Shown: piece after piece, positions 26,319 through 43,535 of the stretch
Position numbering within the stretch: the first letter of the stretch is position 1
Layout: each line of letters opens with the position of its first letter
Source: Patescibacteria group bacterium
GTDB taxonomy: Bacteria > Patescibacteriota > Patescibacteriia > Patescibacteriales > UBA12465
Assembly (NCBI GenBank): GCA_041665845.1
Contig: JBAYIC010000007.1
Span: 3,046-67,045, forward strand
Direction of reading: 5' to 3'
Length of the DNA: 64,000 nucleotides
The notes under the pieces: model-generated
What the model saw: only the letters and a program-made list of their open reading frames with translations
Told to the model about the DNA's origin: nothing
The model's database searches: none
Position numbers and translations under genes: made by a program

Positions 26319-26328
26319 AAATAAATTG

Positions 26329-26739: not shown

Positions 26740-26820
26740 AAATTATATTAATAATCTTATAATAACTGTATCATGCCATTACTCTCTATGAAAAACAGTC
26801 CCTATTTCAAGATTATTTTT

Positions 26821-26857
26821 AATCTGCGGAGAGCGTGGGACGATGTTGGAACGGTGT
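26821..26857 (-). repeat. tRNA-Ser 3'-end-like relic (repeat copy 2)
   Basis: aatctgcggagagcgtggga..ttggaacggt resembles the 3' end of tRNA-Ser(GCU) (gcggagaggcggggattcgaacc) and matches copy 1 at 14635-14663. Confidence 0.5.
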
Positions 26858-26889
26858 TTTTATACAATATCAACAAATTTAACTAATAT

Positions 26890-27807
26890 TCACTTTTTAA
26901 GTATCCCATAGGAACAGCCCTCCAAATCGTTTTTTCCCATAACAATGTTTATGCCTTTTTCCTGCAAATATTTCACCGACTCTCCCGGGATAGCATCTCT
27001 TATTTTTTCTATTTCTGCTTTTTCATCATTTGTTAGTTCCTTTTCATCTCGTTGTTTTGCAAGTAATTCTCGAAACCTTTTATTGTTTTGTCCAATAAAA
27101 TTAAAAACGGGCGCACTAATCCTAGCTTCTCCACCCTCTTTAAGTATCCTTAATATTTCAGTTATACAAAAATCAATATCTTCTTTCTTTCTAAAACCTG
27201 TCGGCGGCCCACCATGTGATATAAGCAAATCGATAGAATTATCTAAAATTTGAGGAAGACCTTTGGTAATATCTGCCACAATACCATTCTTTAGTTCTGG
27301 TCTTTTAGATAATATATTTTCCCTTTTATCTATCGACAAAACCGTACCGGCTTTTCTTATTGTGGCCGCTCTTTCTATAACTTGAGTGCCCGAACCAAGG
27401 TCAATAACTTTTTTGTCTTCTAAATCATCAAAAGTTAGACCTAGACGACTCAATATCTTTGTTGCCCTATTCATTGCCTCTTCATCTGAAAAAGCATCGA
27501 TACACTCAGCTTCTGCCTGCTCGATTCTTCTTATTTTTTCCTCATCTCTATATTTTTTAATTTCGAATTTATTGTCTATAATATTAATTTTAAAACCACG
27601 AGGATCAACCCATTCACTTCTATCAAAAGCATTGTCTAAAAATTGGCTTAATGTAGTTTGTCCATCTCCAATCGGCAGATCTAGTTCTTCCACCTGATAG
27701 CCAGCTATATGTTTTAAAATATAAGCCATCATCTCCCCTTTTGACTCAAACATTATTTTAGGTTTTAACCTATTTTCTATTGGTATGAAACCATTCTCGA
27801 ATGACAT
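26890..27807 (-). CDS. SAM-dependent methyltransferase with an unknown N-terminal domain
   Basis: Motif I VIDLGSGTQ. Its first ~17 aa resemble those of the 14679..15548 product. Confidence 0.65.
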   Translation of the reverse strand: MSFENGFIPIENRLKPKIMFESKGEMMAYILKHIAGYQVEELDLPIGDGQTTLSQFLDNAFDRSEWVDPRGFKINIIDNKFEIKKYRDEEKIRRIEQAEAECIDAFSDEEAMNRATKILSRLGLTFDDLEDKKVIDLGSGTQVIERAATIRKAGTVLSIDKRENILSKRPELKNGIVADITKGLPQILDNSIDLLISHGGPPTGFRKKEDIDFCITEILRILKEGGEARISAPVFNFIGQNNKRFRELLAKQRDEKELTNDEKAEIEKIRDAIPGESVKYLQEKGINIVMGKNDLEGCSYGILKK

Positions 27808-27868
27808 ATAATTTTGATTACTTATGTGAATATTATATCATACCGTTCCAAGGCAATAAACTCCCTAT

Positions 27869-27894
27869 CAAAAAATAGCCCTAAAATAGGGCTA
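27869..27894 (-). terminator. Intrinsic terminator
   Basis: Stem tagccct/agggcta (27876-27894), followed on the minus strand by a T6 run. Confidence 0.6.
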
Positions 27895-28120
27895 TTTACA
27901 AACCGCGGGCTAACTGAGTTAGATACCACCGTTAACAAGGTTTATAAGGGCTTTTGAGTGCCTTTTTTCGAACTCAAAATAAGTAAGTGGGTCGGGTAAA
28001 TGAGACAAATGAGACACTATAGAGCTTTTAGCAATTTGCAAGGGTTTATTAAATATTTTGGCTAATAATTGACTAAATATCGGATAAATAGCAATAAAAT
28101 AAACAACTATATTATAATAG

Positions 28121-29011
28121 CTAAATATCGTTAAAAGCTTGATAGTTAATAATCCCTTCTATACAATAATTTATAAATCCTTCTGAAGATGCTAACCCGT
28201 CCCTTAATGCTGCCTTCCAATTATTACCACCTTTTAACAATCTTTTTGAATCGGCATCATCTTCAATCCATGTCTTAATTTTACTATATAAAATATTTTT
28301 TGCGGGCAAAGACTCTTCCCTCTTATACGTATTAATAATGATATCCATTATTGAGGATATTTCCTCGCTAGAATTTTGGGAATATTTTTCAAGCAAATTT
28401 AAGTTAATAAAATGATTTTTTATTAAGGTGGAAAAATTTATATCAAATTCTTCTGAAAAATTTAAAGAAAAAATAGGCACAAATTTATCATTTGCCGACT
28501 CTATATTACAATACAAAAATATTTCAGCAGCATCAATTGGATCAAAATAAAAATTTAAAAATTCGCGAATACCATCTTCATTCAACCATTTCTCTAATTT
28601 CTTATTATTACAATCTGAGCAACACGGAACTAAATTCAATGAAAATATTGAAAACTCCGGGAAAATACTTTTCGGTAAATAATGATCAAATGGTTTAACT
28701 GGACTAATGCCACAATATTGACAAACGTTTGAATTATTTAATTCAATAATTTTTGCTTTAATTTTGTCTAGTTGGTGTAGTATTTTTGTCTTTGTGACAT
28801 AACAAGAACGGAGGGCACTTCCTTGCCATTGTTCCCAGCTTTCTATTGGTAATAATTCAAGTTCCTTCTTTTTTAATTCATAATCATTATAACGACTTTT
28901 GACTTTATCAAAAACGCCTGAAAGGATTGCTCTCTGCGGTTCTCTTTTTTTGCCTATCATTTCAGACAAAAAATTTTCATTATTAATTTCTGGTATTTTA
29001 AGATTCTTCAT
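28121..29011 (-). CDS. HNH endonuclease (Septu PtuB-like)
   Basis: CQYCG-x8-DHYLPKS...CCSDCNNKK. ATGA overlap with the upstream ATPase gene. Confidence 0.75.
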   Translation of the reverse strand: MKNLKIPEINNENFLSEMIGKKREPQRAILSGVFDKVKSRYNDYELKKKELELLPIESWEQWQGSALRSCYVTKTKILHQLDKIKAKIIELNNSNVCQYCGISPVKPFDHYLPKSIFPEFSIFSLNLVPCCSDCNNKKLEKWLNEDGIREFLNFYFDPIDAAEIFLYCNIESANDKFVPIFSLNFSEEFDINFSTLIKNHFINLNLLEKYSQNSSEEISSIMDIIINTYKREESLPAKNILYSKIKTWIEDDADSKRLLKGGNNWKAALRDGLASSEGFINYCIEGIINYQAFNDI

Positions 29012-30906
29012 TTTTTTTTATCTCTATCAAATAAACTTTGTAGATATAATTTTGCATTAAAGCTTAATCTATTATTAAACAAGGATAAAATTTGTTTGTA
29101 GCTACTGACTTCGGCTAACTTTTTTAAAACATCTTTATAAGTAGACGCACTATAGTCTGTTTCAAAAATTTCATTAGTAATTATTGATAAATTTTCACCA
29201 AAACTTTCAATATTTAAACTATTAATAATTGGTTCTCCACCTTGTCTTTTCAAAACGTTAATATATTTTGAGGGAATCTCTTGTATTACAATTGGCGAAT
29301 GTGTAGAAATGACCGCATATGAGTCAAACTGGTTAATAATTTTATTAAGCATTCTCATAAAATTAGAAATGGCATTAGGATGAAGATGCACTTCTGGTTC
29401 ATCAATTAAAAGCAATGATTGCTCACGAATATAAGCTATTATATTAGTAAAAATATTAAGTAAAATCGCTTCGCCAGAACTAGTTTCATTAAATATCTTT
29501 TCATAATCTTTATTATTAAAATTATCAATCCCCAAAAGTTCCCCAATTACAACTTTCCATATTTCTAATCTTTCGTTTTGTTCAACACTAACCATCGCTT
29601 TAATAAATTTATCCCTTAACTCGTGTCTACTCATGAGCCTCTCTAACTTTTCTCCATTATTTTTTTCCGAGATTCTTATTCCTAAAAATAAATAACTAAA
29701 AACTTCGGTGCTTGCTTCAGGGATTTCAAATTTATCAAATACGCTATATGAAATTGCAATTATTTTACTAAAATGCGGCTTTGGTTCAAAAAATCCATAA
29801 CTATTTTTATTATTTAGCTGCCCGCTTAACGCATTCGCCATATTAGCGAGTAAACCTGTTTTGCCTGTGCCATTCTTTCCTATCAATGCATTTATTCTGT
29901 AGGGGAGCTTATCTTTTTTAAAGTTAAAAGATATCTTATGATCAGAATCAAACCCGAGAATCTTCGTTGTAAATAGAAACTGTGTATTATTCTCAAAAAC
30001 TTCATATCCAATTTTAAATAACTCGCCAGCTTCATTAAAAGCTTTTTCGGTCTCACTGAAACGCATTATTGATGTTTTCCACCCCTCATCACTTAAAAAA
30101 TCATCAGAAAATTCGCTTCCCCTAAATACAGCGTCATTTAAAGCTCTCAAAATCAGCTCATATTCCTCTACTGGTATTTTCACTACTTCTTGATAATATT
30201 CTATCGAATTCCCAAGTGAAATATAATCATCCGCTAACTTTTCAATATCATTATCGATTCTTGTAATCTTATTATTTTTTTGAAGTATTTTTATTGTTCC
30301 CAGCCTAATACTCTCTTTTTTATTTTTGTAATAAACTACATGAAATAAAGTTTGCCAATTAAAGTCATTCCAATTATCTCTAGCCAAACACAAACAAGGA
30401 TAAAAGACTGAATCTGTTTGTGGCGGTGACGGATTTAAATAGCTGCTTCCTATGTAAATTTTTAATTTCGGATAATAATTAGTTTCTCTATATTTAAATA
30501 CCGGCCTGTTAAGCAAAAAACTTGCCCTGTATAATTCATAGCCAGAATTTTTTAACAGCCGATTGAATTCGTTAAAAAGTATTAATACTTGAGCAGTCTC
30601 TTCTCTGACGGTCGGATGCAAACAAAGACAAATAAATTCTAAGAAAATATTGTCTGCGCAATTTAGTAGATTAAAACGCTCATCTTTAAAAACCCAATCA
30701 TCATCCCAATCATTCGGATTAGTTATTCTGTGTCTTATTATATCGCCAGCGGCGTCTTTATGTCTTGCGTCATATGAAGGGAGTAATGACAAGTCAAATA
30801 TTTTACTTAAAAAGTCTACATCATCTAAATTTCCATGCCAAGAAATTGAAGAAATTTTAAGAGAATCAAAAATGCTTTGTCTAATTATTTTATTAATTTT
30901 TCTCAT
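29008..30906 (-). CDS. ABC/AAA_21-type ATPase with a ~340-aa N-terminal extension (Septu PtuA-like)
   Basis: Walker A GKNGTGKT (residues 343-350), Walker B LLLIDEPEVHLHP, STHSP. The N-terminus carries SWHG, DWDDDWVF and LHPTVRE blocks. Confidence 0.75.
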   Translation of the reverse strand: MRKINKIIRQSIFDSLKISSISWHGNLDDVDFLSKIFDLSLLPSYDARHKDAAGDIIRHRITNPNDWDDDWVFKDERFNLLNCADNIFLEFICLCLHPTVREETAQVLILFNEFNRLLKNSGYELYRASFLLNRPVFKYRETNYYPKLKIYIGSSYLNPSPPQTDSVFYPCLCLARDNWNDFNWQTLFHVVYYKNKKESIRLGTIKILQKNNKITRIDNDIEKLADDYISLGNSIEYYQEVVKIPVEEYELILRALNDAVFRGSEFSDDFLSDEGWKTSIMRFSETEKAFNEAGELFKIGYEVFENNTQFLFTTKILGFDSDHKISFNFKKDKLPYRINALIGKNGTGKTGLLANMANALSGQLNNKNSYGFFEPKPHFSKIIAISYSVFDKFEIPEASTEVFSYLFLGIRISEKNNGEKLERLMSRHELRDKFIKAMVSVEQNERLEIWKVVIGELLGIDNFNNKDYEKIFNETSSGEAILLNIFTNIIAYIREQSLLLIDEPEVHLHPNAISNFMRMLNKIINQFDSYAVISTHSPIVIQEIPSKYINVLKRQGGEPIINSLNIESFGENLSIITNEIFETDYSASTYKDVLKKLAEVSSYKQILSLFNNRLSFNAKLYLQSLFDRDKKK

Positions 30907-31003
30907 TAATTTAAATTTAATAAATAAAGCTTATCAATTATTATATATAATGTATTTTAATCAATTTTATCTCTATTTATCATTATAAAAAACATTAAAA
31001 AAT

Positions 31004-31504
31004 CTAATCTAATTTTTCTTCAATTAAATTCCAACTATTTAAATATCGTTCTATGTTCCAACCATTTTCATTTTTCTTTGGTGGTATCTGGACGGAACGG
31101 AAACTAGTTTTGGCATGATGTTGCCCTTTTTTCCCCGGAGCATTAAACCATATTTCATGAGATTCTTTTACATTCCTAGCCATAACAGAAGACGGAATTA
31201 TGTAATAAGAAAAATCTTGTTTAGACTGCATAGTCGGAATACAAGCTAAAACCCAAAAAAAATTATTTCCATATTCTTTTTCTGCCTTTTTTCCAACACT
31301 GCAATCACTGTCGCTTGGACGAAAAGTTTTAACTTGAATATGGACAAATTTAGTACCTTCTTCATTACTGCAGAGAATATCGGTATTAGGACAGTTGCCC
31401 ATAGTCACTACTGCCGCATAACCTCGGCGACAAAGTTCCGCTGCAACAAAAAATTGACTCGCACTACCTCTATGATTTTTGTTTTTTGTTTTACTGCCCT
31501 GCAT
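31004..31504 (-). CDS. PD-(D/E)xK nuclease-fold protein (Hjc-like)
   Basis: E23 (AAELCRRGY), D42 (NTDILC) and Q57-V-K59 (HIQVKT) are spaced as in Hjc/PDDEXK nucleases. Confidence 0.5.
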   Translation of the reverse strand: MQGSKTKNKNHRGSASQFFVAAELCRRGYAAVVTMGNCPNTDILCSNEEGTKFVHIQVKTFRPSDSDCSVGKKAEKEYGNNFFWVLACIPTMQSKQDFSYYIIPSSVMARNVKESHEIWFNAPGKKGQHHAKTSFRSVQIPPKKNENGWNIERYLNSWNLIEEKLD

Positions 31505-31509
31505 ATATT

Positions 31510-32169
31510 TTAGATATGAAAATTATCAATTTTTCTTTTTTTATTATTTATAGCATAATCATCCAATGAAAATTTCTCCAAAGGAGTTAGTCCTCTCCCG
31601 GAATATTCGAGCGTTCTATATAAATATCCAATAAACGAACCAGCATAACGAAAACGTCTGACGCAAGCACTAATATGACTATCTACAAGATCATTATACC
31701 CCTTCCAACTAGAAAAACTCTTATCGAACTCAACCCAATAATCTACTAAATATCTTAATAGCACCAATATCTTATCGTTTGCTAGCATATTACCCTTCTG
31801 AGATAATCTCACAAGCTTAATGCTTATCCAATCACAAATTGTCTTATCTTCTTTGCTTTCTCTAGATATAAAAGTATAGAGTTTTTCTTTATATTTATTC
31901 AAAATTATATTTAGCTCATCCTCGTCTTCATATAAAGATACTGTTTTTCTTTGTCTTCTTTTCTTCTTCAACCATAACCCCTGATTATATCTTTGAAGTT
32001 GAGAAATTACTAAATCCCAATCCGTCTGATTAAATTCATCTTTTATATTGTCAACGATATATTTATACGAAACCTTACATCGATATTTTACCCAATTTAA
32101 ATGAAATGATTTCGGCTGTTTTTTTATCAACGATCTATCTATATTTCTTACAGCCTGACTTAAATCCAT
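31510..32169 (-). CDS. Hypothetical protein (219 aa)
   Basis: ORF track. 2-nt and 5-nt spacers to its neighbours. No motif recognised. Confidence 0.6.
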   Translation of the reverse strand: MDLSQAVRNIDRSLIKKQPKSFHLNWVKYRCKVSYKYIVDNIKDEFNQTDWDLVISQLQRYNQGLWLKKKRRQRKTVSLYEDEDELNIILNKYKEKLYTFISRESKEDKTICDWISIKLVRLSQKGNMLANDKILVLLRYLVDYWVEFDKSFSSWKGYNDLVDSHISACVRRFRYAGSFIGYLYRTLEYSGRGLTPLEKFSLDDYAINNKKRKIDNFHI

Positions 32170-32171
32170 TG

Positions 32172-32465
32172 TTAATCCAGATTAATTATCTTGCCGTCTT
32201 CATGTAGAAAATGATGATGATAAAATTTACCTTTAAAATTTCCACATTCTTTACACGTACTAGCTAGATAACTTTCATTACTAGTTTTACTATAATGATT
32301 TTGCAAAATCACTCCATTTTGCTTTGCAAGAGATATTTCAAGTTCATTAAACTCCTCCGGGCCTTTATATGTTCCACCATCAAAAACAAGTGCGGTTTTC
32401 ATTAATTTGCCACATTTCCAACATTCTATATCTATTACCTTTAAATATTTCTCATCTCTTTTCAT
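32172..32465 (-). CDS. Zinc-ribbon protein (97 aa)
   Basis: CWKCG ... CKECG, two CxxC pairs. Confidence 0.6.
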   Translation of the reverse strand: MKRDEKYLKVIDIECWKCGKLMKTALVFDGGTYKGPEEFNELEISLAKQNGVILQNHYSKTSNESYLASTCKECGNFKGKFYHHHFLHEDGKIINLD

Positions 32466-32470
32466 ATTTC

Positions 32471-32647
32471 TTATGTCTCTATAATTTTATAATTCTTTTG
32501 AAGATACATAAGCTCTTCAACCTTATTCTTAATAATTTCATTTTTGGTATCACAACATTCATCCTGAATTAATAAATTCAAAATGGTTGCCAAGGTTCCA
32601 AAATAATCATCCGATTTTATGTGAAATTCTAGCGATTCAATGTTCAT
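32471..32647 (-). CDS. Unannotated 58-aa ORF (MNIESLEFHIKSDDYFGTLATILNLLIQDECCDTKNEIIKNKVEELMYLQKNYKIIET)
   Basis: Found by hand. Its ATG overlaps the TGA of the 534-aa gene (ATGA), and its stop lies 5 nt before the next ATG. Confidence 0.5.
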   Translation of the reverse strand: MNIESLEFHIKSDDYFGTLATILNLLIQDECCDTKNEIIKNKVEELMYLQKNYKIIET

Positions 32648-34248
32648 ACTTTTTGTATCTTAGAAATTACAACATTATAATTTAACATTCTTAGCCTTTT
32701 ACAAACATTTGATAATGCTATTTTACTAAAAAATGGTAAATTCAACTCTTCCGCCGATGAACTTATTATTGCAAAAACAATTTGATATTCAGTAGCATTT
32801 GGTTTACTATCCGTGTCAGAGAGTTTGCAGTCAGCAGGTAAAATATTATTTACGCCATCCCTAAAAGATTTCTCTTCCAAAAACAGTTCGCCAGATACCA
32901 GCCCCTGATTAAATAAATGGCTCAAAACGCTAGAACCGCCATATATCTTAACATGAATCAATCTTTTGTTTGATTTCGAAAACAAATCACAAAATTCTAC
33001 TTTATTATTTCCGCCTCCTATTTGGATTAATTTTTTATCAAAAAGAATATAATCATTATTGTCTTCGGATACTTTTTTGTTATATCCTCCCTCACCCTTG
33101 TCATCCCCTTTTCCTGCAAAAATATTTTCTTGATAATCAGGAAGCCCTAAATTTAACTTAGGCACCGAATCAAATCTTGAATTTATATCGCTAACAAAGC
33201 TGGCATTAATTTTATACCAATTTTTATTATTTAAAATATAATAATTCCCCTCTAAAGTCGTTTCGCAATATAAACAGCTATAAATGCTCCAATCAGCGAA
33301 TTCACTCTTCGTGAAATCATAAACTCTAAACACGTCATAATAGCATTTAAGCTTCTTGATATCTAAGTCATTTAATTTATCACCTAGATAGGCCTTAAAA
33401 TCTAATAAATGTAGATCCTCAAATTGATCTTGGCTACTTTTACTATACTTAAAACCTTCAATTCCAGACCACTCTATAACCTCAGGAACAGCCAACCAGA
33501 TTTTATCTAGATTTTCACCTTTAATTCTATTAACTAACTCTTCGTCTAATTTTTCTATCAAACCGCTATTATCGACTTTTCTTATATTATTAATCCAAGC
33601 AAAATTTTCTTTATAAGCCTCACTCTTATAATATTTAAGATACTCACTCAAGAATCCTTTTATTGTTTTATAATCAGATTCTATTGTTACATGGAAAGAA
33701 TCCCTCCCCGTTATTATCCCGCCTAAATCTTCAACGCTACACTTTCCCGTAACAACATTAACTAAGTCTTGCTCTATATCGACGCCAAAATCCTTTATCT
33801 CACCACTTTTAATAAGCTGCTCTCTGGTTTTCTTTCCGCTTAACGCAAGATCGACTTTGTCGACGCTTCTTAACGTATTTGGTGTAACTAAATTTAATGT
33901 AGTAAACAATCCAAAATCATCTTCACAAACGTCTTTTTTGAGCAGGCTTTTTCCATATCCAAAAACTAGGGCTAATACTCTCTCGTCAACTTCTGTTAAA
34001 AAAACAGCCCTTGTATTTGAGTTACAAAAGCTGATATCACCAAGGGTATCGATGCCAAAAAATTTTTTCAACCAGTTTGGTTCACTTTTTTTGGACTCGG
34101 AGAAATAAAGTGTCCCAATAATCTCATCACCATTTTTTATTTCTTCTTTTTCAAGCGCATCAAAATTATCCACAATATCTTCAAAATCTTTAAACTGTGT
34201 CTTTATGAAAAAAACGGCTATTTTATTTTTATTTTTTCTAGCTGGCAT
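32644..34248 (-). CDS. TIGR04141/DUF6119-like 'sporadically distributed' protein (534 aa)
   Basis: Length and blocks (LVFGYG, DDFGL..TLNLV, ITGRDS, EFCDL-x9-LIHVK..GSSVLSHLFNQG) match my memory of that family. Not verified. Confidence 0.55.
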   Translation of the reverse strand: MPARKNKNKIAVFFIKTQFKDFEDIVDNFDALEKEEIKNGDEIIGTLYFSESKKSEPNWLKKFFGIDTLGDISFCNSNTRAVFLTEVDERVLALVFGYGKSLLKKDVCEDDFGLFTTLNLVTPNTLRSVDKVDLALSGKKTREQLIKSGEIKDFGVDIEQDLVNVVTGKCSVEDLGGIITGRDSFHVTIESDYKTIKGFLSEYLKYYKSEAYKENFAWINNIRKVDNSGLIEKLDEELVNRIKGENLDKIWLAVPEVIEWSGIEGFKYSKSSQDQFEDLHLLDFKAYLGDKLNDLDIKKLKCYYDVFRVYDFTKSEFADWSIYSCLYCETTLEGNYYILNNKNWYKINASFVSDINSRFDSVPKLNLGLPDYQENIFAGKGDDKGEGGYNKKVSEDNNDYILFDKKLIQIGGGNNKVEFCDLFSKSNKRLIHVKIYGGSSVLSHLFNQGLVSGELFLEEKSFRDGVNNILPADCKLSDTDSKPNATEYQIVFAIISSSAEELNLPFFSKIALSNVCKRLRMLNYNVVISKIQKV

Positions 34249-34268
34249 ATGGTTTTATTCATATTTTT

Positions 34269-34297
34269 ATACTACCTCTAAACAAAATTATAATCAA
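34269..34297 (-). promoter_or_regulatory. Sigma70-like promoter of the 534-aa operon
   Basis: Minus strand TTGATT-17 nt-TAGTAT, about 20 nt upstream of ATG 34248. Confidence 0.55.
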
Positions 34298-34380
34298 TTT
34301 TTTCTCTAAAATTAAAGAATCTTTACTGCCATGTTATATAGCATATTACATGGTTTTGGCTAATAATAAAGCAAATACTC

Positions 34381-34409
34381 TTGCACAATATTTTTAAATA
34401 TGCTAGACT
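34381..34409 (+). promoter_or_regulatory. Sigma70-like promoter
   Basis: TTGCAC-17 nt-TAGACT on the plus strand. Confidence 0.55.
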
Positions 34410-34415
34410 GTGGAT

Positions 34416-34892: not shown

Positions 34893-34919
34893 AAAAAACC
34901 AACTTAAATATTTATCTAT

Positions 34920-36185
34920 ATGAGTATAAACTCTAAAGAAAAATTAAAAATTGAAGAAGTAAATATCGCCCTGCTAAAACAATCCGAATATAATCCCAGA
35001 AAATTAAGCGATAAACAAGAAGAAACACTAACTAAAAGCATTAAAGAATACCAATTATTAGATCCGCTAATAGTAAATAATTACAAAGGCAGAGAAAATA
35101 TTATTATTTCAGGTCATCAACGCTATAAGGTGGCAAAGAAACTGGGTTATAAAGAAGTTCCCGTGGTTTATGTTTGTCTAAATCTAGAAAATGAAAAAAG
35201 ATTAAATTTACTAATGAACAAAGCGCAAGGAGAATGGAATTATGAGCTTCTTCAGTCTTTCGACGTAGACCTATTGCTAGACACTGGTTTTGACGAAATA
35301 GATTTTTCTAAAATATTTGATGAGACTATGGAAACTGAAGATGACGGATTTAATATTAGCAAGGAATTAGAAAAAGCTAAGACTACCGATATCAAACCTG
35401 GCGACATATTTAAAATTTGTGGACAAACTGTTTTATGCGGCGATTCAACAGATCCGGAAGTTATTAAAAAATTAATGGGCGAAGAAAAAGCCGATATAAT
35501 CTTAAACGATCCTCCTTATAATCTGAATATTTCATACTCAAGGGGCTTAAGCGGTAACATGAACTACTGTGGTCAAGTTGATGATAATAAAAGTGATTCT
35601 GAATATCGAGAATTTATCAAAAAATCTCTGGCTAACGGATTAGCGGTCAGCAAAAAAAATTTACATGTTTTTTATTACCACGACCCAAAATATACGGGTA
35701 TGTTTCAAGATATCTATAAAGAACTGGGAGTCCAGTATAAAAGAACTGCCCTTTGGATCAAGAATAATGCCAACATGACCCCGCAAGTAGCATTCAATAG
35801 GTGCTACGAACCAATACTATATGGAACAACAGGAAAACCCTATCTTTCTGATGTTAAAAATTTTAACGAGATTATTAACAAAGAGGTTGGTGTCGGCAAT
35901 AGAGCAATAGAAGATATCCTTGACCTACTAGACATATGGCTGGTTAAACGTTTGCCTAGCACAGATTACGAGCATCCAACGGACAAAAATCCAACACTTC
36001 ATGAAAAAGCTTTAAGGCGGTGTACAAAAGTTAATGACGTTGTTCTTGATATGTTTGGCGGTGGAGGTTCTTTGGCTATCGCTTGTGCGCAATTAAAGCG
36101 TAGGAGTTTTATTTGCGAACAAAGCCCAATTTTTACACAATTAATAGTCAATCGACTTAAAATATATGAAAATACAAAAAATTAA
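34920..36185 (+). CDS. ParB-like nuclease domain fused to a beta-class N6-adenine/N4-cytosine DNA methyltransferase
   Basis: N-terminus EYNPRK...ISGHQRYKVAKKLG (ParB/Srx fold). Motif IV LNDPPY precedes motif I DMFGGGGS. Confidence 0.85.
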   Translation: MSINSKEKLKIEEVNIALLKQSEYNPRKLSDKQEETLTKSIKEYQLLDPLIVNNYKGRENIIISGHQRYKVAKKLGYKEVPVVYVCLNLENEKRLNLLMNKAQGEWNYELLQSFDVDLLLDTGFDEIDFSKIFDETMETEDDGFNISKELEKAKTTDIKPGDIFKICGQTVLCGDSTDPEVIKKLMGEEKADIILNDPPYNLNISYSRGLSGNMNYCGQVDDNKSDSEYREFIKKSLANGLAVSKKNLHVFYYHDPKYTGMFQDIYKELGVQYKRTALWIKNNANMTPQVAFNRCYEPILYGTTGKPYLSDVKNFNEIINKEVGVGNRAIEDILDLLDIWLVKRLPSTDYEHPTDKNPTLHEKALRRCTKVNDVVLDMFGGGGSLAIACAQLKRRSFICEQSPIFTQLIVNRLKIYENTKN

Positions 36186-36918
36186 ACGTGGGGATATTAT
36201 CCAACTCGGGGAGCATCGATTACTCTTCGGCGACTCACGCGACCAAGAAAAAATTAAAGAGCTTATTGGAAACAGTAAAATTAATTTAATATTAAGCGAC
36301 CCTCCTTATGGAATCGACTATGTCGCTAGTAAGTCGGGTTTTAGTCAGAGCCTTGGAAAGCCTAAGGATATAGCTAACGATCAACTTCAAAGTGAAGATG
36401 AATATATTAAATTTACAGAAGATTGGCTAAAAGTTATTCTGCCATATCTTGATAGAAAAAACTCTATCTATATATTCAACTCTGACAAGATGATATTTGC
36501 CTTAAGACAGGCCATGAAGAATATTGGCATATATTTTTCCCAGCTGTTAATCTGGGCAAAAAGTAATGCCGTTATAGGTAGACTGGACTATCTTCCAATG
36601 CACGAGTTAATCGCTTATGGTTGGTTTGGCACACATTCTTTCAAAAAAAGTAAAGATAAAAGCATTCTGTTTTGTCCAAAACCAAGCAAGAGCAAATTAC
36701 ACCCGACGATTAAACCCCTTTCACTTTTAAGACGGCTAATACTTAATAGTACTAATATTGGAGATGTTGTCTACGATGGTTTTGGCGGATCGGGTAGTAC
36801 ACTTATGGCAGCCGAAATGATAGGACGGAAATGTTTAATGGTTGAGACTGACGAGGAATACTGCCAAACAATAATTAACAGATATTATCGACTGAAAAAT
36901 ATATCTGAATCACTATGA
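36166..36918 (+). CDS. DNA methyltransferase (beta-class, DPPY)
   Basis: LSDPPYG ... DGFGGSGST. Overlaps the upstream methylase gene by 20 nt. Confidence 0.85.
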   Translation: MKIQKIKRGDIIQLGEHRLLFGDSRDQEKIKELIGNSKINLILSDPPYGIDYVASKSGFSQSLGKPKDIANDQLQSEDEYIKFTEDWLKVILPYLDRKNSIYIFNSDKMIFALRQAMKNIGIYFSQLLIWAKSNAVIGRLDYLPMHELIAYGWFGTHSFKKSKDKSILFCPKPSKSKLHPTIKPLSLLRRLILNSTNIGDVVYDGFGGSGSTLMAAEMIGRKCLMVETDEEYCQTIINRYYRLKNISESL

Positions 36919-37433
36919 GCGGGTATAATAAAAAGAATGTTACGGTGGCGGACATTCTTAAACGAAAGGAGCTTGAAAAAAATAAACAAGCTCAAAAAAA
37001 TAAACGCCAAGAAAACGACAATAAACGAAAACTGACTGCTATTGAAAAAAGACAACAGGAACAGAAGATGCAAATGATTGAAGAGATACGTAATGTTTAT
37101 ATTCCTTCTATTGCCTGCCAAAAAACTGGTATATCTAGAGCGACTCTATATCGTTGGATGGCTGATGATTATAATTTTAATAAAGAGTTTACAAAGAGTC
37201 GAGTGGAAGGACGAGGTGCTATAAATGATTTAGCTGAATCAAAAATTGTTAGTAAAATTAAAAACGATGACACCAAAGCAACAATTTTTTGGTTAACCCA
37301 TATGCATCCAAACTTCATTAATCCTATTCTTTCAATATCAGAGGAGACAAAAGAAAAAATGAAACTATCCCCCGAATATTTGACTGGTCTCGCCAAAAGA
37401 TTAGCTCAATGGAAAAGAGAAAACTTACACTAA
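36915..37433 (+). CDS. HTH protein, phage terminase-small-subunit/phBC6A51-like
   Basis: GISRATLYRWM HTH followed by ATIFWLTHMHPNF. ATGA overlap with the methylase gene. Confidence 0.45.
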   Translation: MSGYNKKNVTVADILKRKELEKNKQAQKNKRQENDNKRKLTAIEKRQQEQKMQMIEEIRNVYIPSIACQKTGISRATLYRWMADDYNFNKEFTKSRVEGRGAINDLAESKIVSKIKNDDTKATIFWLTHMHPNFINPILSISEETKEKMKLSPEYLTGLAKRLAQWKRENLH

Positions 37434-37434
37434 T

Positions 37435-37470
37435 AAAAAATACCGCAGTTTAGCCACTGCGGTATTTTTT
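37435..37470. terminator. Bidirectional intrinsic terminator
   Basis: 9-bp stem taccgcagt/actgcggta flanked by A6 and T6 runs, between convergent genes. Confidence 0.75.
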
Positions 37471-37861
37471 ATTCTTTAAATTTTTTAACTAAGAAATTAA
37501 AATTAGGATCACTCACAGAAATCGGCTCATTATTCTCATCAAATTGCACTGTAAGCGATAACACCTTTTTACTGCTCAAGGTTACTATAAGATATATTAC
37601 CCCTGGAAGTATCCAGAGAAGTAATAAAACAATAAAGGCTATTGGATTAAATCCGCTTAATTGTTTATTGAGGACAATATAATTATTTTCGTAATTTTCA
37701 GAAACAACTGAATAGGCGGGGTACTTCTGTTTTAAAAATTCAATAAACTTTTTAAACCTGCCATCTTTAATGATGTTTGCCTTATCAAGACTTTCGCCAC
37801 AATGGCGACACTTCTTAGCTTCGTCTTGTATTTCTTCGGCGCAAAACGGACACTTTTTCAT
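37469..37861 (-). CDS. Zinc-ribbon membrane protein (130 aa)
   Basis: MKKCPFCAEE...CRHCG followed by one TM helix. I chose the start at ATG 37861. The 5' extension in the track ORF (to 38074) runs through a palindromic non-coding structure. Confidence 0.6.
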   Translation of the reverse strand: MKKCPFCAEEIQDEAKKCRHCGESLDKANIIKDGRFKKFIEFLKQKYPAYSVVSENYENNYIVLNKQLSGFNPIAFIVLLLLWILPGVIYLIVTLSSKKVLSLTVQFDENNEPISVSDPNFNFLVKKFKE

Positions 37862-37888
37862 AAATTTATAAGTTATATTTATAAATAT

Positions 37889-38057
37889 GGATGTCCGAAT
37901 AAAACAAAAACGGACACCCGACCTAGTTGCAAAACTACATTTTGGGTTTCCGCAAGGATTCCTACTCATGCTGGTCGGGATGTCCGTTCCTGTGCATGAA
38001 TAGGAAAAATAGGCCAAAAATGACCAAAATCCTTGCGTATCTAAATGTAGTTTTGCA
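37889..38057 (-). promoter_or_regulatory. Nested imperfect palindrome, a candidate structured RNA or DNA site
   Basis: Paired arms 37928-42/38043-57 (15 bp), 37951-60/38028-37 (10 bp), 37961-71/37994-38004 (11 bp), plus 37911-23 complementary to both 37973-86 and 37889-97. Confidence 0.45.
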
Positions 38058-38121
38058 CTTAAAATATAACTCAAAATAGCCTAAAAGTAAAGCAAAGTTA
38101 CCAACAATTTGCCTACAGCTA

Positions 38122-39537
38122 ATGCCTAGACTTCCTATATTTATTGCGGCATTACTTGGTCATAACAACTATAACCATATGAACCAAGTAACTACAATTT
38201 TAAGCCCTAATGCAACCATACAGGGCCAAAACGGGGCTAATTTAGGGGTCTTGTCGCAAGAAACTCTCAAATATTGCCTCTATGCCCGTAAGTCGACAGA
38301 ATCGGAAGAAAGACAGGTATTATCAATCGATAGTCAAATTAAAGAAATGCTCGATTTGGCTACTAGAGAAAATCTCAATATTACGGAAATAAGGCGAGAA
38401 TCCCATAGCGCTAAAGAAGTTGGACAAAGACAAATATTTAACGAACTAGTAGCCGATATTAAACTCGGCAAATTTAATGCTATATTAACCTGGGCGCCAG
38501 ATCGTATATCAAGAAATGCTGGCGACCTTGGAGCAATAGTAGATTTAATTGATCAGGGCATACTTAAAGAAATAAGAACCTTTAGCCAGAGATTTACTAA
38601 TAATCCCAATGAGAAGTTCTTGTTGATGATTTTAGGATCACAAGCCAAACTAGAAAATGACAATAGGGGCGTAAATGTAAAACGAGGGTTGAGGACAAGA
38701 TGTGAGATGGGGTTATGGGTGGGACCTGCCCCGCTAGGTTATTTAAACCAAAACAGAATGGACAAAAAATGTCAGGTTATCGTTGACCCGCTTAGAGCCC
38801 CTGCCATTAAACAGATATTTGAGAAAGTAGCCTATGAAAAATATAGTGGTCGAAAATTATATCACTGGCTAGTCCATGAGCTTAACTTTTACACTCGAGG
38901 CAATAAGCCATTAACACTTAGCGGCATATACAGAATACTAGATAACACTTTTTATTACGGGGTATTTGAAAGACCAAAAGGAAGTGGTAATTGGTATCAG
39001 GGTAAGCATAAACCACTAATCACTCAGGACTTATTTGAAAAAGCGAAAGCCCAGCTTAAAAGAGATAATATTCAAAGAGAAAACAAGGAATTTGCTTTTA
39101 CTAAAATGTTTACCTGTGGATTTTGCGGATCTGGAATATCTGCAGAAAGTAAATATAAGCAATTGAAAGATGGCACTACCGCACACTATATTTATTATGG
39201 ATGTTCTAGGGGGAAAGATAGATTTTGTAAAAATAAATACATAAGAGAAGAGGAGCTTATTGAAGAATTACTGAAAATCATAGATAAATTAGATATGAAT
39301 GAATTGGGAATACTAACGAGAATGGAAATGGAGGTTGAACGACTTAATAAGTTTCAAAATATGGTATTTGGCGAAAAGCGGCTCATCAAAAAACAAAAAC
39401 CCGCAGTTGATATGCGAGTTTATGCTAAGTATGTACTTAAAGAAGGAAGTTCTATCGAGAAACGAGAACTACTGGCGAATTTAAGAAGTAAAATTAATCT
39501 TGAGAATAAGAAATTAATATTGCTAAATAAGTTATAG
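38122..39537 (+). CDS. Large serine recombinase
   Basis: Resolvase catalytic domain (YARKSTESEERQVLSIDSQ), recombinase domain, zinc ribbon (CGFCGS...YYGCSRG..FC) and a coiled-coil tail. The start could be ATG 38179. Confidence 0.9.
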   Translation: MPRLPIFIAALLGHNNYNHMNQVTTILSPNATIQGQNGANLGVLSQETLKYCLYARKSTESEERQVLSIDSQIKEMLDLATRENLNITEIRRESHSAKEVGQRQIFNELVADIKLGKFNAILTWAPDRISRNAGDLGAIVDLIDQGILKEIRTFSQRFTNNPNEKFLLMILGSQAKLENDNRGVNVKRGLRTRCEMGLWVGPAPLGYLNQNRMDKKCQVIVDPLRAPAIKQIFEKVAYEKYSGRKLYHWLVHELNFYTRGNKPLTLSGIYRILDNTFYYGVFERPKGSGNWYQGKHKPLITQDLFEKAKAQLKRDNIQRENKEFAFTKMFTCGFCGSGISAESKYKQLKDGTTAHYIYYGCSRGKDRFCKNKYIREEELIEELLKIIDKLDMNELGILTRMEMEVERLNKFQNMVFGEKRLIKKQKPAVDMRVYAKYVLKEGSSIEKRELLANLRSKINLENKKLILLNKL

Positions 39538-42500
39538 ATACTTATTCAAAATCATATCTTTTTTCTGTTTCGTTTCATTCAACTTTTGGTTTAATCCCAC
39601 AATTTCATCTTCAATTTTTACAATTTGATCAATAGCTTTTTTCTGGTCAACAAGAGAGGGTAAATTGCAAGTTTGATTATAAACGTCATTTCTATTTAAA
39701 CCAGGCACTCCAGCTCCTAAAATTAGATCCTCTAACTCTAGGCTAGCTAGGACATAGTAAAGAAATTTGTAATCAACATCTTCACTGTTTTTTTTAACAT
39801 AAAATGTAGTATCTATAGGATAATTATCCTCATCAATCCAATTAACTTTACCGGCTGATCCTTTACGACCAACGATTATAGTCGGACCCGTAACAATAAA
39901 ACTATTATGACGTCCAACAACACCATTGGAGCCCATCACTGGGTATTTCCCATTTATTCTCTCTCTTTCTGGTAAGGCGGAGCCATACTCAAGCGTCAAT
40001 ATATCTCCAATTCTAACATTTTTAAACTTATTAGAGGAAAATAAGTGTTTTTTTATCTTTTCTTTTAAAGCTTTTATTTTACCAACAATTTGTTCATCGC
40101 TCTTATTAATTTTTTCTATTTCTTCTAATATCTTATTCTGAGTGCTATTAGAAATCATCGGTATTTTAATCTTAGATAAATCGTCAGAGTAAACATGCGG
40201 CTGAGCCTGCCCCCTCTGCAATGTATAAATTTCATTCTGAGTGTTCTTTAAAAACTCATATAATAATTTTGTCTTTATACTGTTTTCGTCTTTTGACTTA
40301 ATTGTATTACAATCGGAAGCAAATATTGGTTTTCTAAAATAATTAACGAAACCAGCATAGGCGCCAGAGGCGCTTACGGTAATAATATTACCATCTCTAT
40401 TTGCTTTATTGTGAAAATAAGCAGGGGTTTGTCCTCCAGCAATAACAGGGATATCGCCTGCAGTAACCCCCTCCTGCGTAATTGATGTGCCCTTTTTTAT
40501 ATCAGCAATATCAGATAGTAAGTAAAATTTATCTGTTTTCCAAAGACTCTCAAATTTTATTTTTTTTTTAAAACTTAAAGAAATTGTTTTTTCAAAATCA
40601 ATCCTATCAAAACTCATCATATCAACCAAGTTTGCCCTAAAAACATGATTTTTTACTGTATCATCAATACTAGAACTATCATCACCTAAAAAGGCCTGAT
40701 AAATATAACTACTTGCCTTTTGTCGATTCTTCTGATCGGATGGATCAAACATTTTTGTGCACTCATCAATAGATTTATTTCTTTGAATTGGATGAATTCC
40801 TTCATAGCCACGTCTAAAACTAAACTCATACCCCAGGAATAATTTCTCTTCTTTTTTATCTCCCGATTTTACAATTACCACTTTTTGACTACAGCTTAAA
40901 ATAAAATAAAGTATTTTTTCCTTTTCTTTACGTATAATAATATCCTGTATTTCTTTTTCATTCTTAATCTTTATTTTTTCAAGATATTCTTTATATAAAA
41001 CATGTTTTTTAATTCTATCATTTGGTTTTCCCTGGCAAAAAGTTATATAGTCAGAAAAATCAAGTTTCTCCCAAACAAATTTTACGTATCTTGAAAATAC
41101 ATTTTCTATTCCGTTTACTGTTACATCATTAAAATTGTGAAAAAATTTATTTACTGATTCTTGAAAATTTTCCCATTCATAATTTGTTCGACGACGTAAA
41201 AATAACACCACCGTATTTGTTCCTGTCGCCATAAATGTACCTGAACCCAGTTCAGTAATACTAATAATCTCAAAATATTTAAACAAAATTTCTCTTGCCT
41301 TAGTATAAATACCAGCGTTACTTAGTATGCTTGATGGTAAAATGATGCCCGCCATCCCGCCGTCCTTTAGCAACTGCTTAGTCCTTTCTATAAATAGGCA
41401 CTCTATTTCCGAACTCTGGTCGGTCAATTTTGAAAATAAATCAAAAGATTCTCTCGCGCATTCTTCATTTAACGTCCCTTTAAAGGCCGAGACTGAATAT
41501 GGGGGATTTGAAATTACTAAATCAAACTGTTTATTGTCTTGATGAAAATTACTATCAGTTTCCTTTAATTTCCCACGATATTTATTCGGTTTATCAAACG
41601 TATTCAACCCATCTTCATGAATAACTTTAGCTAATCCATCACCATGCAAATAACAACCCACTTTGGCAGTTTTCACAAGACGATAGTCTTTCTCTATGCC
41701 ATAGAGATAGTCAAACGCCCAATTAAACTGGTCACTCTTCCAAGATTTAATTTTTTTGGCTGATTGCGGATTTAAAATATTTTCGTCAATAACATTAATA
41801 TTCTTTTGAATTTCATCCATTGATTCCGTTAAAAAATGACCACTGCCCGCGGCGTAATCAATTGTAAAAGGCAACAAATCAGTTGGATTGCCCAACTTTA
41901 ACTTTTCATCAATTATTTCTTTTATTGGCAAACTTCTTACAATAAATCTAGCTACTGGCACTGGAGTAAAAAATTGTCCGGACTCTTGTTTGAGCCCAGT
42001 AGTTAAGAGCAGTTCAAAAAAATCACCAAGATATTGATGTTTTTGATTATAACGAATTTTAAAGCCTTGTAACAACTCGACTACTTCTTTTACAACCTTC
42101 GCGTTATCTTCGAATGACGCATCATCAAAAACTTCTTTAAAAGCGAATTCATTATTCTTTTTAAGCCTAATTTCTGTCAATATTTTTAGAAAATCTGCTT
42201 TATACTTTGAATCAACTGCTCCAAATTTTTGTTCAAATTCTTGGTCGCTGACATCAGTAACCTCTTTTTCCAATAATTCGTGCATTCCTTTCTTGTACAG
42301 ATCCGTTAATCTTTTCTGAAATGAAATATTATCATCTTCTCCGTCTAACCATTGAAAATGCAACTGTTCATTATCAGATCTATTTTCATCAACAATTTTA
42401 CAAAGAAAAAGAGTAAAAATTTTATTAAAGGCATTAGGCTTGTCGGAAACGACATTCTGTCTTAAAATTTCTAGAAACCTATTAAAAATAAAACTACTAT

Positions 42501-43176
42501 CTTCTTGTTTAATTATTTTTAAATCCTTAGTTGTCAGAGCCTTGCTTTGATATTCGTAAGCATTAACCCAATCATCAAAAATTCCATTTAATTTTGTTAA
42601 TTTACTCCATCTCTCAAACAAATCTTTTACATTACCGGCCTCTCTGTAGTGGTCTTCAATTTTTACAATTTCATTCTTGTATTCTATTTTTTTATCAATA
42701 AAATCAGACGTGTATATTATTAAATATTCTGCATTTCTATCTTGTTGAAAATATGTAAAAATTTGTCCACCGTCTTTTTTCAGTTTTTTGCTTTCTTTTT
42801 CAAACTCAATTCCCCAAGTTTTACATTCAATCATTAGATATGCCTGTCCATTCTTTTCAATTAAAATATCGAGTCGCCCACTAGTACCATGCCCTGTAGG
42901 AAATATTTTTTCTAATATAATATCTTCTGGCTTATATCCCTTTTCCAATAATCTATTAACACACTCCAAAACAACCCAATTTTCTTCTTGAAAAAAATTT
43001 TGAGTAGTGCCACTGTCTGATCTTATTTTAGAGCCAAAATTAATTTTTTGTTCTTCAAAATCAACCTCAATAATATAATCATTGAATTTAGCAAATTTTT
43101 TCTGGAGAACACCCAATGCTCCTTCTTTAGATAAAAAGCCTAATTTTAGCAAAAATTCTTTCTTATTCATAGCCAT
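39532..43176 (-). CDS. Single-chain restriction-modification-specificity enzyme (Type IIB/IIG, AloI/CjeI-like)
   Basis: N-terminal PD-ExK (RLDILIE...MIECK). Gamma-class N6A methylase motifs (QFFTP, DYAAGSGHF, SNPPYS). Two C-terminal HsdS-like TRDs. Confidence 0.8.
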   Translation of the reverse strand: MAMNKKEFLLKLGFLSKEGALGVLQKKFAKFNDYIIEVDFEEQKINFGSKIRSDSGTTQNFFQEENWVVLECVNRLLEKGYKPEDIILEKIFPTGHGTSGRLDILIEKNGQAYLMIECKTWGIEFEKESKKLKKDGGQIFTYFQQDRNAEYLIIYTSDFIDKKIEYKNEIVKIEDHYREAGNVKDLFERWSKLTKLNGIFDDWVNAYEYQSKALTTKDLKIIKQEDSSFIFNRFLEILRQNVVSDKPNAFNKIFTLFLCKIVDENRSDNEQLHFQWLDGEDDNISFQKRLTDLYKKGMHELLEKEVTDVSDQEFEQKFGAVDSKYKADFLKILTEIRLKKNNEFAFKEVFDDASFEDNAKVVKEVVELLQGFKIRYNQKHQYLGDFFELLLTTGLKQESGQFFTPVPVARFIVRSLPIKEIIDEKLKLGNPTDLLPFTIDYAAGSGHFLTESMDEIQKNINVIDENILNPQSAKKIKSWKSDQFNWAFDYLYGIEKDYRLVKTAKVGCYLHGDGLAKVIHEDGLNTFDKPNKYRGKLKETDSNFHQDNKQFDLVISNPPYSVSAFKGTLNEECARESFDLFSKLTDQSSEIECLFIERTKQLLKDGGMAGIILPSSILSNAGIYTKAREILFKYFEIISITELGSGTFMATGTNTVVLFLRRRTNYEWENFQESVNKFFHNFNDVTVNGIENVFSRYVKFVWEKLDFSDYITFCQGKPNDRIKKHVLYKEYLEKIKIKNEKEIQDIIIRKEKEKILYFILSCSQKVVIVKSGDKKEEKLFLGYEFSFRRGYEGIHPIQRNKSIDECTKMFDPSDQKNRQKASSYIYQAFLGDDSSSIDDTVKNHVFRANLVDMMSFDRIDFEKTISLSFKKKIKFESLWKTDKFYLLSDIADIKKGTSITQEGVTAGDIPVIAGGQTPAYFHNKANRDGNIITVSASGAYAGFVNYFRKPIFASDCNTIKSKDENSIKTKLLYEFLKNTQNEIYTLQRGQAQPHVYSDDLSKIKIPMISNSTQNKILEEIEKINKSDEQIVGKIKALKEKIKKHLFSSNKFKNVRIGDILTLEYGSALPERERINGKYPVMGSNGVVGRHNSFIVTGPTIIVGRKGSAGKVNWIDEDNYPIDTTFYVKKNSEDVDYKFLYYVLASLELEDLILGAGVPGLNRNDVYNQTCNLPSLVDQKKAIDQIVKIEDEIVGLNQKLNETKQKKDMILNKYL

Positions 43177-43239
43177 AAAAGTATATAAATATTATAACAT
43201 ATTTAATAATTTTGGTATAACCTTTTTTATTTAGCTTAC

Positions 43240-43264
43240 CAAAAAGCCCCGTAAATACGGGGCT
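43240..43264 (-). terminator. Intrinsic terminator after tRNA-Ser(GCU)
   Basis: Stem agccccg/cggggct followed on the minus strand by TTTTT. Confidence 0.7.
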
Positions 43265-43293
43265 TCATGGGTCTGTCCGATACTAAATTGTCT

Positions 43294-43385
43294 TGGCGGA
43301 GAGGCGGGGATTCGAACCCCGGATAGAGGTAAACCCCTATAACAGGTTAGCAACCTGCCGCTTTCGACCGCTCAGCCACCTCTCC
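43294..43385 (-). tRNA. tRNA-Ser(GCU)
   Basis: Hand fold: acceptor GGAGAGG, anticodon arm CAGGT-TGCTAAC-ACCTG, long variable arm, T-arm CCGGGGTTCGAATCCCCG. CCA is encoded. Confidence 0.9.
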
Positions 43386-43388
43386 AAT

Positions 43389-43485: not shown

Positions 43486-43535
43486 CAATCTTTTTTATTT
43501 TTATGGTATAATCACTATATAAAATATCAAAACCC

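Follow-up and report, generated by a model that had tools for sequence, protein, structure and literature searches.

Gene content and boundaries of the island

The DNA analyzed here, a 64,000-nt stretch of a contig from a Patescibacteria host (candidate phyla radiation, CPR), referred to below as the window, carries an island of 15,391 bp (27,909-43,299) that abuts the 3' end of a tRNA-Ser(GCU) gene and encodes a large serine recombinase (LSR) along with predicted defense genes. A sequence-only reading of the region had described an accessory, mobile, defense-laden island at this tRNA, a description that our results bear out, and the gene set that it listed (an ATPase with an HNH nuclease, a DUF6119 protein, two methylases, a helix-turn-helix (HTH) protein, the recombinase and a restriction-methylase-specificity enzyme) was confirmed by profile searches. 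For one of the island proteins an exact copy has been deposited under the label "Patescibacteria group bacterium," which identifies the host as a CPR bacterium. The Pfam scan covered the ten proteins encoded at 28,121-38,074, the recombinase and the restriction-methylase-specificity enzyme, with a 58-aa open reading frame (ORF) at 32,471-32,647 left out.

The left part of the island holds two groups of minus-strand genes. The first comprises a gene for an HNH nuclease (28,121-29,011; PADLOC PDC-M01B, Septu PtuB-like, E=6.8e-63; weak Pfam HNH match) and a gene for an ATPase with AbiJ_NTD3 and AAA_21/AAA_15 domains (29,008-30,906; PADLOC PDC-M01A, E=6.7e-153, and PtuA, E=2.9e-78). The two genes overlap by 4 bp and show the ATPase-then-HNH operon order of Septu (PtuAB)/PDC-M01; the pair is Septu-like, with a predicted role in defense. 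The second group consists of a DUF6119/TIGR04141 gene (32,644-34,248; Pfam E=9e-139, TIGR04141 E=2e-145) and, downstream of it, four small genes (31,004-32,647; 166, 219, 97, and 58 aa). The 166-, 219-, and 97-aa proteins gave no Pfam, PADLOC, or NCBIfam match, the DUF6119/TIGR04141 gene has no PADLOC entry, and nothing on the function of DUF6119 was found in the literature searched; the module is a candidate for a new defense system.

The central genes are encoded on the plus strand and comprise a ParB_N-N6_N4 DNA methylase fusion (34,920-36,185; Pfam), an N6/N4 DNA methylase (36,166-36,918; Pfam E=1e-34), and a 172-aa HTH protein that weakly resembles small terminase subunits (TerS) of the phBC6A51/Sf6 type (36,915-37,433; phrog_4102, terminase small subunit, E=2.5e-7). 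A fold search with this HTH protein gave weak matches to the phBC6A51 homeodomain and to TerS proteins (pTM 0.44), and a viral relative, L162, matches phrog_4102 at E=5e-22 and is encoded upstream of a methylase, a large terminase subunit (TerL), and a portal protein. The operon ends at a bidirectional terminator-like hairpin with an 18-pair stem (37,432-37,473), beyond which lies a minus-strand gene for a 130-aa zinc-ribbon protein (37,469-37,861; Pfam Zn_ribbon) with a homolog in L011 alone. The LSR gene follows at 38,122-39,537 (plus), and the right part of the island is taken up by a minus-strand gene for a 1214-aa Type IIG restriction-methylase-specificity enzyme (39,532-43,176; PADLOC REase_MTase_IIG, E=2e-247), in which Pfam recognized HSDR_N_2 (weakly), N6_Mtase, Eco57I, and two Methylase_S stretches, that is, a restriction-modification (R-M) system in one polypeptide.

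No tyrosine-recombinase domain was reported in the island proteins scanned by Pfam, the 58-aa ORF again being outside the scan, and the serine recombinase is the only recombinase found there, as the sequence-only reading had stated. Relaxase and type IV secretion system (T4SS) domains were likewise absent from the island ORFs scanned, which sets the island apart from integrative conjugative or mobilizable elements, and neither capsid, TerL, replication, nor transfer genes were found in it.

The boundaries of the island come from an island-free contig of 8.4 kb, L003, which belongs to another assembly and sample and was retrieved by look-up of the methyltransferase encoded at 26,890-27,807. In L003 the gene for this methyltransferase is followed directly by tRNA-Ser(GCU), a DUF5673 gene, tRNA-Arg, and recG, and BLAST aligned the contig with the window at 100% identity over 20,724-27,908 (7,185 bp) and 43,296-44,500 (1,205 bp). 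The two matches overlap by 4 bp, GCGG, which is the sole sequence common to both junctions of the island (attL and attR), the empty site (attB), and the joined element ends (attP). Because the identity stops and resumes at these positions with the GCGG overlap, the island extends from 27,909 to 43,299, and its whole length is present or absent as one piece between 100%-identical backgrounds. A join with a 4-bp overlap is impossible for an assembler working with k=141, and the junction in L003 therefore reflects real reads. In addition, a second attL-bearing sample, SRR6484324 (L004), has this attL together with the same cargo genes. The comparison with an island-free relative, which the sequence-only reading had recommended, thus yielded exact junctions and shifted the left edge from the proposed 26,821 to 27,909, while GC profiling, also recommended, was uninformative: the GC content is 31.8% in the island and 33.5% in the rest of the window, and since the former value lies within the range of other window stretches, it is not diagnostic.

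The attL site (27,881-27,935) consists of the host B arm, the core GCGG (27,905-27,908), and the P' arm of the element, GCTAACTGAGTTAGATACC, and the attR site (43,269-43,325) of the P arm of the element, GGGTCTGTCCGATACTAAATTGTCTTGGC, the core GCGG (43,296-43,299), and the acceptor and T arm of the host tRNA. The sequence across the junction reads AAACC-GCGG-AGAGG in attB (in longer form, AAACCGCGG joined to AGAGGCGGGG), AAACC-GCGG-GCTAAC in attL (AAACCGCGG joined to GCTAACTGAG), and GTCTTG-GCGG-AGAGG in attR (GTCTTGGCGG joined to AGAGGCGGGG), from which attP was reconstructed as GTCTTGGCGG joined to GCTAACTGAG. Within the window, the P motif and the P' motif are each unique, and their positions coincide with the two junctions. 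The left end of the element is non-coding (27,909-28,120) and contains TATAAGG and GTGGGTCG motifs; related attP and attL sequences have similar motifs beyond their P' arm. No significant direct or inverted repeats were found to bound the island, an absence that is expected for a serine recombinase, and no displaced tRNA fragment is present as a distal direct repeat, the only repeat being the 4 bp of the core.

The target of integration, tRNA-Ser(GCU), was located by ARAGORN and Rfam on the minus strand at 43,294-43,385 with its 3' end facing the island, in agreement with the earlier placement of the right edge at this tRNA and its terminator. The gene is intact with and without the island. 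The shared core corresponds to tRNA positions 71-74, which places the crossover in the end of the acceptor stem. No CCA is encoded in the empty-site copy; in the occupied site the element supplies the 3'-terminal CA that completes the encoded CCA, together with a terminator (43,240-43,263, minus; GCCCCG-TATTTA-CGGGGC, then a T run) that replaces the host terminator, and in L003 a different hairpin lies 3' of the tRNA.

The left edge at 26,821 had been suggested by a relic (26,821-26,857) that was described as resembling a decayed tRNA-Ser 3' end. A rival model built on this description holds that the region from the relic to the tRNA arose by two or more separate insertions, or is an element in decay, that it was placed by an integrase since lost, and that the serine recombinase is unrelated cargo. 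The likeness itself stood up in part, as the relic is weakly and non-randomly similar to tRNA-Ser 3' ends: it is identical to tRNA-Ser(UGA) at 13 of 15 positions, and with gaps allowed a score as high was reached in only 6 of 5,078 tiles, placing it above 99.9% of the window tiles. Without gaps its score against the tRNA-Ser 3' end is 18, which is window noise, many other tiles scoring 19-21. The cargo modules also vary among relatives, as a composite origin would have it. Against this proposal, both the relic and the methyltransferase gene beside it (26,890-27,807) are kept in the island-free contig, and are therefore host DNA; the relic motif has another copy at about 14,630-14,663, where no island is near; the entire island behaves as one indel whose junctions share 4 bp; and the link between the recombinase and tRNA-Ser extends across its clade (see below). 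We accordingly regard a composite or decayed origin as very improbable.

The relic was rejected as an attL site on account of its ungapped score, its presence in the empty site, and its second copy. It is a copy of a dispersed host repeat and no junction of the island. The relic and the copy at 14,630-14,663 have 17 identical bases, TTTTAATCTGCGGAGAG, and the 10-mer TTGGAACGGT in common; the repeat spans 26,818-26,858 at the relic, and the 10-mer is found again at 27,842-27,851, which makes three occurrences against 0.05 expected. Two copies of the repeat, in inverted orientation, flank the methyltransferase gene. The repeat may be derived from a tRNA, possibly a tRNA-Ser.

The recombinase clade and its attachment sites

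The recombinase contains Resolvase (PF00239, E=3.7e-18), Recombinase (PF07508, E=1.6e-11), and Zn_ribbon_recom (PF13408, E=9.5e-8) domains, the architecture of LSRs, and R56, K57, and S58 of its catalytic motif Y-x-R-K-S-T are invariant in 26 homologs. Its best match among solved structures is SprA/YokA (E=8e-10), its identity to proteins of deposited phage records is at most 29%, and its score with the NCBIfam CcrB model is 113 bits against a cut-off of 900, so that it does not qualify as a ccr equivalog. A protein search returned at least 8,000 homolog clusters at E≤1e-10, the best 120 of which are 70-100% identical; the named matches among these 120 come nearly all from Patescibacteria lineages, and thousands of homologs with 60-94% identity are found in this phylum. 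Similarly, a scan of one genome per species gave at least 532 stretches in which a relative of the recombinase is encoded, almost all labeled Patescibacteria. Between the same genomes, identity is 66-75% for the recombinase and 40-64% for RecG, and this far stronger conservation of the recombinase fits horizontal spread.

For counts of genomic context, 80 recombinase loci from metagenome-assembled genomes (MAGs) were kept. A tRNA gene lies downstream of the recombinase gene in 53 of them, and in all 53 cases it is encoded on the opposite strand and points its 3' end toward the recombinase (binomial P ~1e-16). Forty-eight of these tRNAs are tRNA-Ser (GCU, UGA, GGA, CGA, or a predicted ACU) and the other five are Asp, Trp, or Asn, an excess of tRNA-Ser with a binomial P of ~1e-42 when the tRNA-Ser share of tRNA genes is assumed to be 10%. 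The distance from recombinase to tRNA varies from 150 bp to 8.1 kb within the clade, and the recombinase of the window, which had been placed 5 kb inside the island, ends 3.8 kb from the right end of the island, an ordinary spacing. The P motif, GGGTCnnnCCGATACTAAATTGTCTTGGC followed by GG, adjoins the tRNA end in 39 of the 53 loci, with a variant form in this position in 10 others. The P' motif, GG followed by GCTAnnnGGGTTAAGTACCC, was observed at the far end of several elements, after unrelated host sequence. The spans from P' to P give complete elements of 4.4-15.4 kb, some of them of only 4.4-4.6 kb. A clade that adjoins tRNA-Ser 3' ends with conserved att half-sites leaves little room for the bystander role that the sequence-only reading had implied for the serine recombinase. 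The broader proposal, to which we give about even chances, is that this is a phylum-wide LSR clade specialized for the acceptor-stem end of tRNA-Ser, whichever the isoacceptor, and using Asp, Trp, Asn, and Glu tRNAs as occasional alternative targets.

Joined P and P' motifs, that is, attP sequences, were observed in L025, L049, and four metagenome contigs (L085-L088). The nearest of these junctions to that of the window is in L085, from a relative of the island with about 79% nucleotide identity. L025 was considered as a possible circular free form, in which no terminal overlap was found. The dyad symmetry of attP is maximal when centered on GG in six of seven attP sequences, and the sites are short, have minimal identity between attP and attB, and show imperfect dyad symmetry, as is typical of LSRs; the non-palindromic GG of the core is most likely the crossover site. 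In addition, the P' arm (27,909-27,930) and the tRNA T-arm (43,300-43,322) are identical at 11 of 26 positions at zero shift, and the clade-consensus P', GGGTTAAGTACCC, resembles the tRNA T-arm, GGGATTCGAACCC, at equal distance from the crossover. This likeness may represent half-site mimicry, which might explain both target recognition and tandem arrays.

Based on these comparisons, we consider it very probable that 27,909-43,299 is a single intact integrative element that was inserted into the 3' end of tRNA-Ser(GCU) by its own LSR, and we propose that it works as a mobile defense island. In the proposed mechanism, recombinase dimers would bind both the tRNA end (attB) and attP, an imperfect palindrome of about 45 bp (P-GG-P'), and would cut at the central GG, tRNA positions 71-72; strand exchange would proceed by subunit rotation, followed by religation. 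The P arm would then provide the terminal CA of the encoded CCA and a new terminator, so that the tRNA would stay functional. Short att sites suffice for serine integrases, which need no host factors, and their excision needs a directionality factor.

Several points weigh against this interpretation. Integration by the recombinase is deduced from sequence comparisons, and the crossover dinucleotide from symmetry, the sequence alone narrowing it to the 4-bp GCGG. The attP junction of the exact window element was not found: the attP pattern had no exact match in IMG/VR, and none of the four matches from the metagenome scan was the window element. A recombination directionality factor was not recognized in the element, nor were genes for replication or transfer, and the LexA/S24-type repressor of its relatives is lacking. 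The recombinase is 3.8 kb from attR rather than adjacent to it (the clade norm being 0.15-8.1 kb), the small-terminase assignment is weak (E ~1e-3 to 1e-7; pTM 0.44), and the MAG loci are incompletely independent samples.

An entirely different role for the recombinase would be that of a DNA invertase which phase-varies the specificity domain of the adjacent Type IIG enzyme and takes no part in integration. The genes for these two enzymes converge, with an overlap of 6 bp, and recombinase-driven hsdS shufflons are known (PMC7672463). Neither significant inverted repeats nor spare copies of the specificity domain were found in or near the Type IIG gene, on which ground the shufflon role was rejected; moreover, the enzyme carries the Recombinase and zinc-ribbon domains of integrases, and its relatives adjoin many cargos other than R-M systems, with the tRNA end downstream in 53 of the 80 loci. 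The invertase hypothesis is the least probable that we considered, and we give it almost no weight.

Cargo modules and the relation to phages and satellites

The window element can be divided into a backbone (34,920-39,537; ParB-methylase, methylase, HTH protein, and recombinase) with one cargo slot to its left (27,909-34,248) and another to its right (39,532-43,176). Homologs of the ParB-methylase, the methylase, and the HTH protein were observed upstream of the recombinase in 27, 28, and 21 of the 80 loci, respectively. Backbone homologs also occur in L014, L027, and the closest relatives, L089 and L090, with different cargo, and in some relatives a gene for a LexA/S24-type repressor is divergent from the backbone operon. 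The cargo is an AAA_13 ATPase with an SNase in L014, a PycTM-type set in L089, and a DUF6119 operon on the left with a Type I R-M system on the right in L090. The DUF6119 gene occupies the same slot in L090 as in the window, and a 61/97/220-aa trio follows it there too; the module of DUF6119 with three small genes (58-61, 97, and 219-220 aa) spans 32,172-34,248 in the window and 4,462-7,203 in L090. When the largest ORF between the recombinase and attR was taken from each of ten loci as a sample of the right slot, six had a strong PADLOC defense match (Type IIG, Type I twice, PDC-S53, Dsr1, and LmuB) and a seventh was UvrD/GajB-like. The cargo is modular, with exchange occurring within the element rather than through independent insertions into the chromosome.

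The lack of structural genes, together with a phage-like backbone of ParB-methylase, methylase, and TerS-like protein, would also suit a defective, or "grounded," prophage remnant. Under this scenario a temperate CPR phage integrated at tRNA-Ser and lost its structural genes, and what is left at most excises, is not transmitted, and is kept for its defense genes. The same recombinase clade is indeed represented on a 56-kb IMG/VR viral contig, which has a joined attP, TerL, an endolysin-like protein, and a recombinase 73% identical to that of the window, and the island is without capsid, TerL, replication, and transfer genes. On the other hand, the same architecture without structural genes recurs in unrelated genomes with other cargo, some elements measure merely 4.4-4.6 kb, the att sites and the recombinase ORF are intact, backgrounds that are 100% identical differ in whether they carry the element, a close relative has a joined attP, and the conservation of the recombinase relative to RecG points to ongoing horizontal spread. 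A prophage remnant is thus unlikely in our judgment, and the decayed remnant that the sequence-only reading had offered as one of its options finds no support in the intact recombinase ORF and att half-sites, nor does its option of two or more insertion events in a region that comes and goes as one unit. We argue instead that the island belongs to a functioning class of elements and is not a decayed relic, because its structural-gene-free architecture is recurrent, its att sites are intact, and it is polymorphic at the strain level. A decayed phage is plausible only in the weaker sense of a derivation from phages of the same clade. Speculatively, the integrative element may pass between cells by satellite-like packaging, with a helper phage being hijacked, as suggested by the backbone, whose only terminase-like gene is the weakly TerS-like one, and by the occurrence of the same recombinase clade in a terminase-carrying phage contig.

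The element can be compared with several known systems. Like the LSRs of phiC31, Bxb1, A118, and SPbeta (SprA), its recombinase is a three-domain enzyme with short att sites, minimal attP/attB identity, and an imperfect dyad; as in LSR phages, the recombinase gene points toward attP/attR, and a phage within the same clade carries attP. Unlike in LSR phages and elements, the target is a tRNA 3' end and not a protein-coding gene or an intergenic site, the recombinase and attR lie on either side of a variable cargo slot (0.15-8 kb), and most members are small and without structural genes. With Islander-class tRNA islands, phage-inducible chromosomal islands (PICIs), and tycheposons the family shares integration at tRNA 3' ends, restoration of the gene by element sequence, accessory or defense cargo, and occasional tandem arrays, but its integrase is a serine and not a tyrosine enzyme, and instead of a displaced tRNA fragment or long direct repeat there are 4 bp only. 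The staphylococcal cassette chromosome (SCC) with its ccr genes is similar in being a non-phage, non-conjugative cassette with an internal LSR and variable cargo at the 3' end of a conserved housekeeping gene; it differs in that the present family has a single recombinase with a CcrB score below the cut-off, uses tRNA-Ser rather than rlmH, and resides in another host phylum. Finally, Staphylococcus aureus pathogenicity islands (SaPIs), other PICIs, and P4-like satellites resemble the family in size (4-15 kb), in an integrase with a putative TerS-like gene and no TerL or capsid, in defense-filled cargo hotspots, and in the LexA/S24-type repressors that relatives of the window element encode divergently from the backbone operon. 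Unlike satellites, the family has no replication module, capsid-remodeling genes, or helper phage known here, its TerS assignment is weak, and neither a master repressor nor a primase/rep-ori module was found in the window element.

To our knowledge, few mobile elements have been described in CPR bacteria, and tRNA genes are classic landing sites of tyrosine integrases. The Islander paper (2014/15) states that serine integrases were not known to target tRNA genes, and a 2026 survey reports that serine integrases prefer coding sequences (PMC13626063). No description of a serine integrase clade that targets tRNA genes, or of one in Patescibacteria, CPR bacteria, or Saccharibacteria, was found in the literature searched, most subscription journals being outside its coverage, and tRNA targeting by a serine integrase clade thus appears to be undescribed. 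Large automated island databases may already hold such elements without comment.

If the clade is indeed specialized for tRNA-Ser ends, the rule that tRNA genes are targets of tyrosine integrases alone would be broken, and a serine-integrase clade acting at tRNA ends with a 4-bp overlap would represent convergent use of these ends. The same clade would drive both temperate phages and small satellite-like cassettes with TerS only, and such cassettes would be a major vehicle of defense systems in CPR bacteria; with at least 532 stretches in species-representative genomes, the family appears to be a main route by which these bacteria gain and exchange defense genes. Island finders that rely on displaced tRNA fragments would miss these elements. 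In addition, CPR bacteria have tiny genomes and are hard to manipulate genetically, and an enzyme with a defined attP for the conserved tRNA-Ser end could provide a one-step integration tool for them.

Arrays, miniature elements, and neighboring features

Tandem arrays are unexpected for serine integrases. In the 97-kb contig L088, at about 5,000-14,200, two full elements were observed head-to-tail with an attP-type junction between them, an array that may be due to insertion of a dimeric form or to the likeness between the P' and B' arms. Miniature elements, about 600-750 bp long and made up of P' and P ends alone, are present in L049 (14,394-15,669) and L023 (about 12,772-13,531) and look like non-autonomous derivatives; in L049 they form part of a tandem array in the order attL, miniature element, attP-like site, miniature element, attR. 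In L089 (about 13,640-13,690) the tRNA-Ser 3' end that the P arm adjoins is just about 22 nt long, no full tRNA being predicted there, and this site may be a rearranged or fragment target.

With regard to the tRNAs themselves, ARAGORN predicted tRNA-Ser genes with an ACU anticodon beside elements in L049 (11,382-11,471), L050 (14,562-14,648), L061 (5,776-5,863), and L101 (15,941-16,028); such an A at position 34 is not usual for tRNA-Ser in bacteria. A second tRNA-Ser of the window, tRNA-Ser(UGA) at 17,977-18,064, is an unoccupied potential attB (…TTACTTA-GCGG-AGAGGG), and no P arm was found beside it.

Directly upstream of tRNA-Ser(GCU) lies a GC-rich stretch of about 100 nt (43,386-43,495, minus), which is host DNA and is also present in the empty site. 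Its first 12 bases repeat those of the tRNA 5' end with its leader, ATTGGAGAGGTG, whose plus-strand form, CACCTCTCCAAT, occurs at 43,378-43,389 and 43,478-43,489; the stretch matched no Rfam family and folds well (z=-3.8). Farther to the right, a tRNA-Arg with a GCG anticodon is found at 44,090-44,164, and the order tRNA-Ser, DUF5673, tRNA-Arg(GCG), recG is the same in L011. A host cluster outside the island (49,218-53,596) encodes a VirB4/TraG-like P-loop ATPase and TraC-like and PrgI-like proteins, and is T4SS-like.

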